A DNA stretch of 61,702 bases from Bacteroidales bacterium (GTDB lineage: Bacteria; Bacteroidota; Bacteroidia; Bacteroidales; WCHB1-69): contig JAZRYC010000159.1 of NCBI GenBank assembly GCA_045600525.1, positions 1-61,702 of the forward strand, in the 5' to 3' direction. Under the pieces are notes generated by a model, which had not been told where the DNA came from, searched no databases, and saw nothing but the letters and a program-made list of their open reading frames with translations. Shown here one piece after another: positions 58,709 to 61,702 of this stretch. The position numbers and the translations under genes were made by a program. How positions within the stretch are numbered: the first letter of the stretch is position 1; each line of letters begins with the position of its first letter.

Positions 58709-59785
58709 ATGAAAGTTCGTTTTCTCTTGTTTTTTCTTTTGGCCTTTTTTATGGTGCGCGCACAGGTGCCCTCGGGTTATTACCAAGGTGCCGTAAACAA
58801 AAAGGGTTATGCCTTGCGATCGGCCCTGCATAGTATTGTAAAAAGCCACTCCTCTGTTTCCTATAGCGGTCTGTGGGATGCCTTTGAGCATACGGATGCC
58901 CTTCCCAATGGAAAGGTTTGGGATATTTATTCCAACAATCCTAATGGAAACACCGCCTATTATTTTACCTTTGGTTCCGATCAGTGTGGTAGTTATTCTT
59001 CCGAAGGTGACTGCTATAATCGCGAGCATTCCGTACCGAAGAGTTGGTTTGGCGATGCCGCGCCTATGTACACCGACCTATTTCATCTTTATCCAACCGA
59101 CGGTTTTGTGAATGGCAAACGGGGAAATCTTCCTTTGGGCGAGGTTTCACATGCGACGTGGACGAGCACAAATGGCTCAAAATTGGGAAATTGCTCGGTA
59201 TCAGGATATTCAAATACGGTTTTTGAACCGAATGATGCCTATAAAGGTGACTTGGCTCGCTCGTATTTCTATTTTACCGTTTGTTATATGGATAAAAATT
59301 TAGGACAGGAATCGATATCAATGTTTTCAGGCGGTTCGTTGAAACCTTGGGCGTTGGAAATGCTGATTCGCTGGCACAACGAGGATCCGGTCAGTCAGAA
59401 GGAAATTGACCGCAACAATGCGATTTATGCCATTCAGCACAATCGCAATCCCTTTATTGACTATCCCGAGTTGGTGGGCAAGATTTTCGGCAGCGATTCG
59501 GTAAACGCCTTCAATCCAACTGGCATTGATGATTGGAATATATCGGCGCAATGTCGGATTTATCCCAATCCTGCCCGCGACAATATTACAGTGGAACTTC
59601 CTATGGAAACTTCCGAAGCGGTTCTCCAAATATTCAATATGGCTGGTCAATTGTTGATGCAGCAAAATTGTAGCGAAGAAAACATCCAACAGGTTGATGT
59701 TTCATCCGTCTTACCGGGAATGTATATCCTTCGTATTCAAACCGACAAATATCATATTCATAAAAAAATCATTGTCTCCCATTAA
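58709..59785 (+). CDS. Extracellular endonuclease I family nuclease with a T9SS C-terminal domain
   Basis: NREHSVPKSW, DLFHL, KGDLAR, WHNEDPV, QHNRNPFID; C-terminal IYPNPA...GMYILRI. Confidence 0.88.
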   Translation: MKVRFLLFFLLAFFMVRAQVPSGYYQGAVNKKGYALRSALHSIVKSHSSVSYSGLWDAFEHTDALPNGKVWDIYSNNPNGNTAYYFTFGSDQCGSYSSEGDCYNREHSVPKSWFGDAAPMYTDLFHLYPTDGFVNGKRGNLPLGEVSHATWTSTNGSKLGNCSVSGYSNTVFEPNDAYKGDLARSYFYFTVCYMDKNLGQESISMFSGGSLKPWALEMLIRWHNEDPVSQKEIDRNNAIYAIQHNRNPFIDYPELVGKIFGSDSVNAFNPTGIDDWNISAQCRIYPNPARDNITVELPMETSEAVLQIFNMAGQLLMQQNCSEENIQQVDVSSVLPGMYILRIQTDKYHIHKKIIVSH

Positions 59786-59794
59786 AATCCAATT

Positions 59795-59850
59795 TTTCTC
59801 TCTTCTCACTCTACCACTCTACTATTCTACCACTCTACTATTCTACTATT
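59795..59850. repeat. Heptamer/octamer microsatellite
   Basis: TTCTCTC TTCTCAC followed by (TCTACYAY)x5. Confidence 0.7.
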
Positions 59851-59874
59851 ACCCATTTACCAAAACCCACTGAC

Positions 59875-60297
59875 ATGTTATATCTCACCAAACATTTTGA
59901 CTTTGAAATGGCCCACGCGCTGATGGGCTATCCCGGCAAGTGCCGCAATATCCACGGACATTCCTATAAGATGGAGGTCACCGTTACGGGCGAACCCGAC
60001 CCCGCAAGCGGTATGGTCATTGACTTCAAGCTGCTCAAAGATCTTGTAAACGAAAATATTGTCAACAGGTTAGACCATGCGTTAGTGCTTTCCGACACGG
60101 TGGATGCGGAACTTCTGGCCACCTTGCGCAAGCATTACGACAAGGTTATCACTTTCCCGTTTGTACCCTCCACGGAGAATATGTTGGAGCATTTCGCCAC
60201 GATACTGCAACCGTGCCTACCCGCCAACGTGAAGCTCTATTCAATACGTTTGCACGAGACGGACACTTCGTTTGCGGAGTGGAGGAATGAACAATGA
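59875..60297 (+). CDS. queD: 6-carboxytetrahydropterin synthase QueD
   Basis: FEMAHAL, CRNIHGHSY, GMVIDF, LDH, STEN, LHET. Confidence 0.92.
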   Translation: MLYLTKHFDFEMAHALMGYPGKCRNIHGHSYKMEVTVTGEPDPASGMVIDFKLLKDLVNENIVNRLDHALVLSDTVDAELLATLRKHYDKVITFPFVPSTENMLEHFATILQPCLPANVKLYSIRLHETDTSFAEWRNEQ

Positions 60298-60408
60298 ATA
60301 ATGTGATAGTTTTTATCAATTGTCAATCACTACTGTTGCGATAATTTTTCGAAAAATACATATAATTCATTGACATTTATATATTTATAAACGTTTTTGA
60401 CTCGGGTT

Positions 60409-60496
60409 ATCTGTCCACATCACAAAGACACGAAGCTATTATCATCAATCATTTTTGCGCAAACGCAAACTTTGCGCAATCATCCATTCCCCTTCT
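60409..60496 (+). repeat. Left copy of an 88-bp direct repeat
   Basis: ATCTGTCCACATCAC...CATTCCCCTTCT, identical to 61296-61383. Confidence 0.9.
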
Positions 60497-60553
60497 TTTA
60501 GAAGGGGTGCCCGTAGGGCGGGGTAGTGATATAAACATTACGGCGAAGCCGTA
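60487..60553 (-). repeat. Inverted, diverged copy of the 75-bp repeat unit upstream of DUF559
   Basis: Reverse complement GTACGGCTTCGCCGT...ACTACCCCGCCCTACGGGCACCCCTTCTAAAAGAAGGGGAA aligns with the downstream units. Confidence 0.8.
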
Positions 60554-60687
60554 CATTATACCTATCAGATAAAATGCGTAATCATAAATTAAACACAAAA
60601 AAATTGTTCTTAACAATAAATTAACTGACTTTTGCGTTTGTTGAATCTTAAACATCTATTATGATAATCATTGATAACCACAAAATA

Positions 60688-61089
60688 ATGAAAAGGACAA
60701 TTCCGGACATTCCGCAAAATCCAGATCTCTTCGCTTATGCACGCAAAAACAGGCACGCAGGAAATTTGGCCGAAGTTGTTTTTTGGAAAGAGGTCAGGAG
60801 CAAGCATTTCTACGGTATCGATTTCAACCGGCAATATGTTATTGGCAACTACATCGCCGACTTCTATATCAGGTCTTTAGGGGTTGTGGTGGAAATAGAC
60901 GGTGCTTATCACAATAATAAAACTGAATATGACCAACAAAGGGAGTCTTTTATGTCTTCATTGGGAATTTACACTTTTCGAATCAGCGATTATGACGTGA
61001 AAAACAACATTTCATGGGTCTTGAGTGAGCTTAAAAAATTCATTCTCCAGCATTTTTCTGAAAAACTAAATGGTACGGCTGCGCCGTGA
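60688..61089 (+). CDS. DUF559 (Vsr/very-short-patch-like, PD-(D/E)xK) endonuclease
   Basis: ARKNR..AE..FW, FNRQYVIGNYIADF, VEIDGAYH, DQQRE, FRIS. Likely start MKRTI; alternative start at 60661. Confidence 0.9.
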   Translation: MKRTIPDIPQNPDLFAYARKNRHAGNLAEVVFWKEVRSKHFYGIDFNRQYVIGNYIADFYIRSLGVVVEIDGAYHNNKTEYDQQRESFMSSLGIYTFRISDYDVKNNISWVLSELKKFILQHFSEKLNGTAAP

Positions 61090-61141
61090 TCACCGATATT
61101 ACTACCCCGGCTTTCAGCCACCCCTTCTTTAAGAAGGGGAA
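61072..61141 (+). repeat. Solitary repeat unit overlapping the DUF559 stop codon
   Basis: GGTACGGCTGCGCCGTGA...CCCCTTCTTTAAGAAGGGGAA supplies the last codons and the TGA. Confidence 0.85.
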
Positions 61142-61221
61142 TGGGCGCCTCCGTTCGGGCAGACCCGACGGGAATAAAACAGCGATTCTGACATTCAAAA
61201 TTTATATAATTCACTGATATT

Positions 61222-61298
61222 TATATATTTACGAACGTTTTTTAACCTGAGAACATCATCTATATATTTACGAACGTTTTTAACCTGAAAACATCATC
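61222..61298 (+). repeat. 38/39-bp tandem duplication
   Basis: TATATATTTACGAACGTTTTT(T)AACCTGARAACATCATC x2. Confidence 0.85.
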
Positions 61299-61383
61299 TG
61301 TCCACATCACAAAGACACGAAGCTATTATCATCAATCATTTTTGCGCAAACGCAAACTTTGCGCAATCATCCATTCCCCTTCT
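61296..61383 (+). repeat. Right copy of the 88-bp direct repeat
   Basis: Identical to 60409-60496; leads directly into the tandem array. Confidence 0.9.
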
Positions 61384-61702
61384 AAGAGAAGGGGAAAGGA
61401 TGGTACGGCTGCGCCGTGATCACTGATATTACTACCCCGGCTTTCAGCCACCCCTTCTAAGAGAAGGGGAATGAACGGTACGGCTACGCCGTGATCACCG
61501 ATATTACTACCCTGGCTTTCAGCCACCCCTTCTAAGAGAAGGGGAAAGGATGGTACGGCTGCGCCGTGATAACTGATATTACTACCCCGGCTTTCAGCCA
61601 CCCCTTCTAAGAGAAGGGGAAAGGATGGTACGGCTGCGCCGTGATCACTGATATTACTACCCCGGCTTTCAGCCACCCCTTCTAAGAGAAGGGGAAAGGA
61701 TG
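61376..61702 (+). repeat. 75-bp tandem array of three-hairpin units (at least 4 full units, runs off the window)
   Basis: GGTACGGC starts at 61402, 61477, 61552 and 61627; units are nearly identical with a few substitutions. Confidence 0.95.

Follow-up and report, generated by a model that had tools for sequence, protein, structure and literature searches.

A DUF559 gene between inverted hairpin repeats

The window analysed here is the whole of contig C159 from a Bacteroidales bacterium (GCA_045600525.1, JAZRYC010000159.1), a stretch of 61,702 nt that belongs to a 2.12-Mb draft genome of 180 contigs. The last 1.4 kb of the contig, beyond a gene for a secreted endonuclease I and queD (Pfam PTPS), consist of repeats, and among these lies a gene of DUF559, a family that is very large but has hardly any function assigned to it. 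An initial annotation of the window had listed the DUF559 gene, an inverted and a direct flanking unit, a 75-bp array and three hairpins to a unit, all of which are present, and had proposed a nuclease that acts on its own repeat family in the manner of RAYT nucleases and their REPs. Our comparisons indicate that this is one instance of a small cassette with a wide distribution, in which a Vsr-fold DUF559 gene is bounded by inverted structured repeats.

The gene occupies 60661-61089 on the plus strand as an intact open reading frame (ORF) of 142 aa, and its product matches PF04480 over residues 25-127 (E 5.7e-25; 87.7 bits against a cut-off of 20.6) and the PDB relative 3hrl (E 3.1e-20). For an AlphaFold (AF2) model of the protein (predicted local distance difference test, pLDDT, 86.7), Foldseek returned, in this order, 3hrl, a Neisseria DUF559 protein of unknown function, 3r3p, the catalytic domain of I-Bth0305I, and 1vsr, which is Vsr. 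Residues D67, E78, D80 and H84 make up a D ... E-x-D ... H motif that is invariant in all 17 full-length close homologues (44-57% identity to the window protein), and to judge from the family these are the putative catalytic residues. The homologues are under purifying selection, with a median ratio of nonsynonymous to synonymous substitution rates (dN/dS) of 0.08 among the 13 of 136 pairs whose synonymous divergence is unsaturated. Conserved residues, dN/dS and fold together indicate that the gene is functional.

Although the initial annotation had called the gene lone, it is not the sole Vsr-fold gene of this genome: a true Vsr (PF03852, E 1.7e-30) is encoded near the start of contig C115 (C115:147-641, minus strand; L011), so ordinary very-short-patch repair has its own gene. 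DUF559 was the only such family in the Pfam scan, which gave no HUH/Y1 (RAYT) match, and a tblastn search of plasmid and phage collections with the DUF559 protein gave no match at E <= 1e-15. The gene stands free in intergenic DNA, and the Rfam scan found no intron.

Two repeat units bound the gene, an inverted one upstream (60485-60554) and a direct one (61070-61143) that overlaps the stop codon (61087-61089). Read on the G-rich strand toward the gene, a unit consists of a first hairpin (hp1), one T, a second hairpin (hp2), a G-box, a linker of ~12 nt and a third hairpin (hp3). The 8-nt pyrimidine arm of hp1, CCCCTTCT, is followed by a 3-5-nt loop and a purine arm, AGAAGGGG, and the G-box, GGGGTAGT, is the mirror of that purine arm. 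Orientation is constant, with hp1 distal to the gene and the G-box proximal. We refer to the stretch from hp1 to the G-box as the triplex-hairpin motif (TM). The left TM lies at 60489-60527 with its G-rich strand on the plus strand (pattern match, DNA fold and mirror rule) and divides into hp1 (60489-60507), hp2 (GCCC-GTA-GGGC, 60509-60519) and the mirror G-box (60520-60527); the inner hairpin, hp3, follows at 60540-60552 (ACGGC-GAA-GCCGT, plus strand, DNA fold). At the right end, hp3 (ACGGC-TGC-GCCGT) covers part of the stop codon at 61075-61087 (plus strand, by sequence and fold), and the TM, identified by pattern match at 61101-61139, has its G-rich strand on the minus strand. The right and left TMs form an inverted repeat that is 84-85% complementary over 48-52 nt.

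We counted six occurrences of the full motif pattern in the window compared with none expected from 100 shuffles, and single-strand DNA folding yields three hairpins in every unit, with z-scores of -2.7 to -6.3. The middle hairpin described in the initial annotation, GGCT-TTC-AGCC, is that of the right-hand and array units, where hp2 reads GGCT-GAA-AGCC on the G-rich strand; the upstream unit carries the compensated variant GCCC-GTA-GGGC in its place. The third hairpin, ACGGC-nnn-GCCGT, was added in the window's lineage, and relatives have a counterpart with a compensated stem, such as GGCC-nnnn-GGCC in L014, L017, L019 and L038. The ORFs of two homologues from the same genus (L016 and L024) extend into the right-hand repeat with a common tail, ...TTPPFGHPS, and the window ORF likewise terminates within hp3; repeat-encoded C-terminal tails of this kind may perhaps be common in annotations.

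The relation between the G-box and the purine arm was scored by the purine-motif triplex rule, in which G stands opposite G and either A or T opposite A. We scored 73 units, drawn from 35 loci in a wide range of lineages, and found 189 of their 219 variable positions to be triplex-compatible, compared with 153.6 +/- 5.7 when G-boxes are shuffled among units, and none of 5000 shuffles was as high; 52 of the 73 units are fully compatible. Different arm classes each have their own box (GAAGGGG-GGGGTAG, GGAGGGG-GGGGTGG, AGAGGGG-GGGGTGT). By reading of 33 spacer types in 52 units, hp2 takes ~20 different self-complementary stems of 3-10 bp. We interpret the variety of hp2 stems and the mirrored G-box as covariation for structure. 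Because the mirror relation is not Watson-Crick, and RNA is stated to be incapable of forming purine-motif triplexes (Holder et al. 2015, PMC4666352, cited here and below from part of its text), the constraint points to DNA. The layout corresponds to a class II purine-motif intrastrand triplex of the BoxC/PIT/TM type whose second loop has been enlarged to form a hairpin, and here the computed structures are the Watson-Crick hairpins and the triplex is read from the mirror pattern. Both this triplex-type design and the link to BoxC/TM repeats had been overlooked in the initial annotation.

Occurrence of the cassette and its repeat in other genomes

A homologue at E <= 1e-10 was found in 25 of 61 sampled relatives of the genus. 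The 17 full-length close homologues sit in the same bracket as the window gene, in the order outer GC hairpin, AATT, hp1, hp2, G-box, ~35 nt, gene, ~30 nt and the mirror image. From a one-genome-per-species scan, the best 80 of 592 relatives were analysed. These are mostly Bacteroidota (Chryseobacterium, Flavobacterium, Pedobacter, Chitinophagales), and the other hosts belong to Pseudomonadota, Cyanobacteriota, Bacillota, Spirochaetota, Nitrospinota and candidate phyla. Among these and the genus loci, 86 had flanks of sufficient length; 85 of them have a hairpin of hp1 type no more than 350 nt from the gene, and 63 have one on each side, compared with 1 of 71 control stretches located 1050-1450 nt away; the loci are the best matches to the subfamily, and these figures describe the subfamily and not all DUF559 genes. 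At 52 of 77 cross-phylum loci the score of the inverted-repeat bracket exceeded the best of 20 shuffles by 8 or more. Additionally, nine more distant DUF559 loci (<=40% identity) were inspected, and an hp1-type hairpin was found at none of them. The enrichment of the repeat in the flanks of close DUF559 homologues, which the initial annotation had predicted, is thus borne out.

Within the genus, a search with the motif pattern gave 536 matches, spread over 44 of 55 genomes, and the reversed pattern, used as a control, gave none. Copies number 0-49 per genome and lie on both strands, many of them as +/- pairs 100-500 nt apart. The association of gene and repeat in the genus is one-sided: the motif is present (3-37 copies) in each of the 20 genomes that have a full-length gene, and the gene is in none of the 11 motif-free genomes. 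A rank test of gene against repeat abundance gives p = 2e-4; with draft metagenome-assembled genomes (MAGs) and close kin, little weight can be placed on this value or on the absences. Repeat class clusters on the protein tree, with 15 changes compared with 29.8 after shuffling, as would be anticipated if repeat and protein co-varied; the tree largely follows host taxonomy, and we rejected the clustering as evidence of co-evolution on account of this confounding.

Cassette flanks are unrelated in all 18 of 18 compared, and a genome may carry up to three full-length gene copies in addition to fragments. At the window's own locus, the whole block after queD is absent from all four relatives that keep the endonuclease I-queD synteny (queD 88-92% identical), in agreement with the empty queD site that had been anticipated, and the intergenic DNA after queD in these four is unrelated to the window's. 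Pieces of the gene (residues 2-51, with or without 107-139) are found between motif doublets, for example in G074:C28 and G030:C59, as expected if ORF-less doublets arise by internal deletion. ORF-less doublets, internally deleted copies, solo motifs, inner-segment inversions and tandem arrays all derive from the cassette.

The enclosing element and the tandem array

The cassette of the window forms the centre, at the central palindrome, of a miniature inverted-repeat transposable element (MITE) whose right arm joins, near 61205, a further, partial copy that holds the array. This nesting of the cassette within a classical MITE downstream of queD is new and had been overlooked before. The outer MITE begins with a left terminal inverted repeat (TIR) at 60328-60344 (plus strand), recognised by pattern match to the TIR of copies in genome G006, and the same TIR motif heads copies on the window genome's own contigs C94 and C70. 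Its left arm contains module X (60409-60488, plus strand), which ends in a GCGCAAA...TTTGCGC hairpin and CCATT; the module is 100% identical to 61296-61375, is also found on C70 and C94, and aligns with the solo MITE described below. The right arm is module Y (61140-61205, plus strand), which contains a bulged hairpin of the form CCGTTCGGG-CAGA-CCCGACGG and has copies on C70 (twice), C94, C113 and C50, and it aligns with both solo and doublet MITEs. Fused to Y is the left arm of the second partial MITE copy (61197-61375, plus strand; Tandem Repeats Finder (TRF), direct repeats and blastn), which is AT-rich and includes the second copy of module X, X' (61296-61375), and a tandem duplication of 38 bp at 61222-61299 (TRF: period 38, 2.0 copies, 95% matches). 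This duplication is absent from the first MITE copy at 60353-60408.

Genome G006 has three identical 401-bp copies of the MITE (L145:253-653, L146:234-634, L147:233-633) with the same TIRs and three different 9-bp target site duplications (TSDs), and each holds a motif doublet in its centre and no ORF. With the right end of the window MITE fused to the second copy, TSDs were read from these G006 copies. The window's own genome contains a 269-bp solo MITE (C94:16512-16780) with a single imperfect hp1 exactly at the position that the doublet or cassette takes in other copies. Cassettes of clade B lie in a second, unrelated outer element with the same property, of which a solo form exists in the motif-free genome G032. 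Two origins of the solo hp1 forms are compatible with these sequences: the cassette may target central palindromes and duplicate hp1, or a deletion may have occurred between two hp1 copies.

The 75-bp array comprises at least 4.4 units at 61376-61702 (minus strand; TRF, fold and motif pattern) and runs off the contig end. TRF reports 4.4 copies with 94% matches, no indels and a score of 605. One hp1 abuts module X', and each unit then adds the linker with hp3, the G-box complement, hp2 and hp1, which gives four complete TMs on the minus strand (61431-61469, 61506-61544, 61581-61619 and 61656-61694). The array had been described as following the gene directly, which is not the case, as the 236-nt stretch 61140-61375 with two other repeated modules lies between them. 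The units abut at an exact period of 75 with no unique spacers, and the earlier statement that this is not a CRISPR array holds. It had escaped notice that the array is an amplified cassette end: the composition of its units is that of the right end of the cassette, and we interpret it as a head-to-tail amplification of the right-end unit in the centre of the second partial MITE copy. At least eight further loci, from unrelated lineages, have end-unit arrays immediately next to a homologue (L015, L069, L073, L084, L097, L109 on both sides, L110 and L117), with periods of 33-72 and 2.2-4.8 copies. The element therefore regularly gives rise to amplified ends, which are not peculiar to this contig.

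The window's own genome was searched for a continuation of the contig by means of the sequence that follows queD in relatives, with no useful match, and contigs from four public DNA runs, with no RNA run listed beside them, provided fragments only, with no bridge past the array and no depth or copy number. Upstream of the repeats, the endonuclease I gene (PF04231, 58703-59785) encodes a type IX secretion C-terminal sorting domain and adjoins queD, and the pair is syntenic in four relatives; the spacer between the two genes carries at 59810-59850 a short 8/16-bp tandem repeat, TCTACCACTCTACTAT, in 2.3 copies.

Interpretation and relation to known systems

We lean towards the reading, which we consider probable, that the locus is a selfish nuclease-repeat cassette whose nuclease nicks the folded motif and whose spread is driven by repair and resembles homing. 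The nuclease would recognise the folded or distorted motif and nick it, by analogy with Vsr, which nicks at a distorted mismatch. Repair or replication restart templated by another copy would then copy the cassette, or one end of it, into hp1-bearing sites, so that spread would be homing-like and dependent on recombination. Misaligned repair between hp1 copies could give rise to arrays, deletions and inversions.

Several observations weigh against this model. Any activity of the protein, on the repeat or otherwise, is so far a prediction. The motif is present in 20 of 31 gene-less genomes, and reaches 49 copies in G069 (99% complete), 29 in G005 and 26 in G006 (98% complete); of the dependence of copy number on the gene that the initial annotation had envisaged, there remains the presence of the repeat in every genome with a full-length gene. 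The doublet-bearing MITE copies of G006 moved with 9-bp TSDs, that is, by an ordinary transposase and not by the DUF559 nuclease. The solo-hp1 forms on C94 and in G032 are other copies of the outer elements with an imperfect hp1 and could equally be deletion products, and perfect solitary hp1 sites are rare, with hp1 counts per genome close to motif counts. A nucleotide-exact empty site of the cassette was not found: when the L038 locus was searched through the genus, G025 and G021 differed by ~1 kb, which G021 is without, and there was no clean junction. Between genomes, cassette DNA has diverged about as much as the genes next to it, and thus provides no evidence of recent transfer. Finally, the assemblies are draft MAGs, from which repeats and their genes are often lost, and related genomes are non-independent samples.

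The high motif counts in gene-less genomes and the identical MITE copies of G006 would also be expected under the main alternative, in which the repeats spread alone or by another enzyme, through structure-induced replication slippage or recombination or by hitch-hiking on MITEs that a transposase moves, with DUF559 as a passenger or a host gene between them. In variants of this explanation the motifs may insert preferentially at DUF559 flanks, or may act as expression or insulation signals. Published TM sites fit it as well, being tied to local instability without remnants of transposases or integrases (PMC4666352). We nevertheless judge it unlikely, though far from negligible. The bracket is kept at 85 of 86 loci from many phyla, whereas all 18 cassettes compared lie in different surroundings, the gene is absent from all 11 motif-free genomes, and the gene itself is under strong purifying selection. 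Additionally, decayed gene fragments within doublets suggest that doublets derive from cassettes and not the reverse. The comparison with RAYT and REP made at the outset survives in the architecture and in the flanks, but not as a strict dependence of repeat abundance on the gene.

An extension of the selfish-cassette model, which we offer tentatively and with considerable reservation, is that BoxC/TM-type repeats are non-autonomous progeny of DUF559 cassettes. These would then form a new class of mobile element that lacks a transposase, in which a Vsr-fold nickase reads a folded triplex or hairpin, host repair or replication copies the cassette or one end into palindrome-bearing sites, and arrays are the footprints of repeated one-ended copying.

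It is very improbable that the gene, through its inverted repeats, is a phase-variable segment that inverts as a programmed switch. Such a switch would accord with a report, seen in part, in which "DUF559 domain-containing protein" is enriched (odds ratio 14.3) among predicted programmed-inversion targets (PMC9881135). It would also accord with the ORF-less doublet, whose inner segment (~70 nt) is inverted in C70:48383-48760 relative to the L145 form (G006:C45) and is found in both orientations in metagenome contigs. Against it, the ORFs in the final 4.7 kb of the contig, where the assembly stops within the array, include no recombinase, and the one orthologous filled pair (G025 and G065) is in the same orientation; the switch would leave the different genomic sites, the arrays, the solo units and the mirror G-box unexplained. 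On our reading of the part of that report available, its enrichment may instead be an unrecognised trace of the inverted cassette ends.

That the array and flanking units encode a structured RNA, as the initial annotation had allowed, or a repeat protein is hardly credible. Each unit does have three stable hairpins, and the period of 75 is a multiple of three (25 codons) with one minus-strand frame open through the array. An Rfam scan of 59700-61702 gave three matches at chance level, however, the best at 24.9 bits against a gathering threshold of 46, and the conserved mirror relation fits a purine-motif triplex of DNA, not RNA. The units stand in both orientations around the gene, and the array periods of 49, 46, 70 and 71-72 in other lineages are not multiples of three. 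By reading of the sequence and its ORFs, about six of seven base differences between units change a residue, so a coding signal in the array was rejected, and the open frame has no Pfam match. An assembly artefact at the contig end is scarcely plausible either. The array does abut that end, and several contigs of the MAG (C70, C113, C1) break in the same repeat family. Between units, however, 1 to 6 positions vary (91-100% identity), and an independent public run includes a contig of 105 nt, longer than one unit, that agrees with 61576-61680 except for one difference. Both observations speak against a simple loop of the assembly, and comparable arrays lie beside homologues in independent assemblies.

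Among known systems, the repeat is closest in design to BoxC/PIT/TM_ECO, which have long been known as abundant, conserved and tied to local rearrangement, and for which no mechanism of spread or partner protein is named in the literature we read. In the part of Holder et al. drawn on here, 3610 TM_ECO copies are reported in 262 proteobacterial genomes with an excess of rearrangement at the sites, remnants of transposases or integrases are said to be "never found" nearby, and the TM_ECO pattern is given as a 9-nt C-stem, a 3-6-nt loop, a 9-nt G-stem, a 3-nt loop and a 9-nt G-stem (PMC4666352). The same E. coli repeat has also been described as HPGQ/HPG1 (PMC5100583, seen in part). The window repeat shares the C-rich arm, the loop, the G-rich arm and a second G-rich block that mirrors the first, and like BoxC/PIT/TM_ECO it is multicopy, intergenic and found in either orientation, often as inverted pairs, with copy numbers that differ sharply between close relatives. 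Unlike TM_ECO, it has A-containing arms of 8 nt, a 10-34-nt covarying hairpin in place of the 3-nt second loop, and an added third hairpin. It also has a gene beside it, whereas the portion of the TM_ECO work we draw on reports no associated mobility gene nearby (PMC4666352).

The strict TM_ECO pattern has no match in the window. In E. coli K-12, one exact TM_ECO lies ~170 nt downstream of the DUF559 gene ycjD on the same strand, the only match in the 30 kb examined. At this locus (L150, 16320-16465), ~40 nt of the ycjD 3' end are repeated ~100 nt past the stop, before the TM_ECO, and a degenerate hp1-like palindrome lies over the ycjD stop codon; the arrangement looks like the remains of an older cassette end. 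In the literature searched we found no paper that links DUF559 to these repeats, and the papers that name DUF559 are not about repeats. The available main text of Holder et al. mentions neither DUF559 nor endonuclease (PMC4666352), and ycjD, endonuclease and "transpos" do not occur in the available text of the HPGQ paper (PMC5100583). The cassette may explain the spread of a long-puzzling repeat family, and the reproducible bracket around one DUF559 subfamily across phyla offers a directly testable enzyme-substrate hypothesis for both the gene family and the repeats. To this the window adds the nesting in a MITE, the amplification of an end into arrays, and the comparison with gene-less genomes whose many repeats limit the simplest model of dependence.

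RAYT genes encode an HUH Y1 transposase, are flanked by inverted cognate REP repeats, and are kept vertically as a single copy at one locus. Like REP/REPIN-RAYT, the cassette pairs a single small gene of nuclease type with inverted copies of a cognate hairpin repeat on its two sides, and ORF-less singlets and inverted doublets far outnumber the gene in the same genome. Unlike RAYT, its enzyme has the PD-(D/E)xK Vsr fold and not the HUH fold, and the gene has a patchy distribution, with multiple copies at different loci that are often decayed; the repeat differs from REP in its triplex-type mirror design, and tandem arrays of one end are common in DUF559 cassettes, unlike in REP/RAYT systems.

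The protein shares the fold of the I-Bth0305I catalytic domain (3r3p; Foldseek probability 1.00, TM-score 0.72-0.75 on the target), and like free-standing homing endonuclease genes the cassette shows presence/absence polymorphism of the whole block and a distribution that looks selfish. Unlike those genes, it lies outside any intron or intein, has long structured terminal inverted repeats and non-autonomous progeny, and gave no exact empty target allele in the genus search. With E. coli Vsr (1vsr) it has the fold and the acidic/His motif in common, and a Caulobacter VsrA with a DUF559 domain indicates that a DUF559 protein can damage DNA in vivo (PMC12907096, seen in part). Unlike for Vsr, no methyltransferase link was seen for the DUF559 cassette, and it is a repeat, in place of a methylated site, that is conserved together with the gene. 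Should the nuclease prove structure-specific, it would be one of the few natural readers of non-B DNA.

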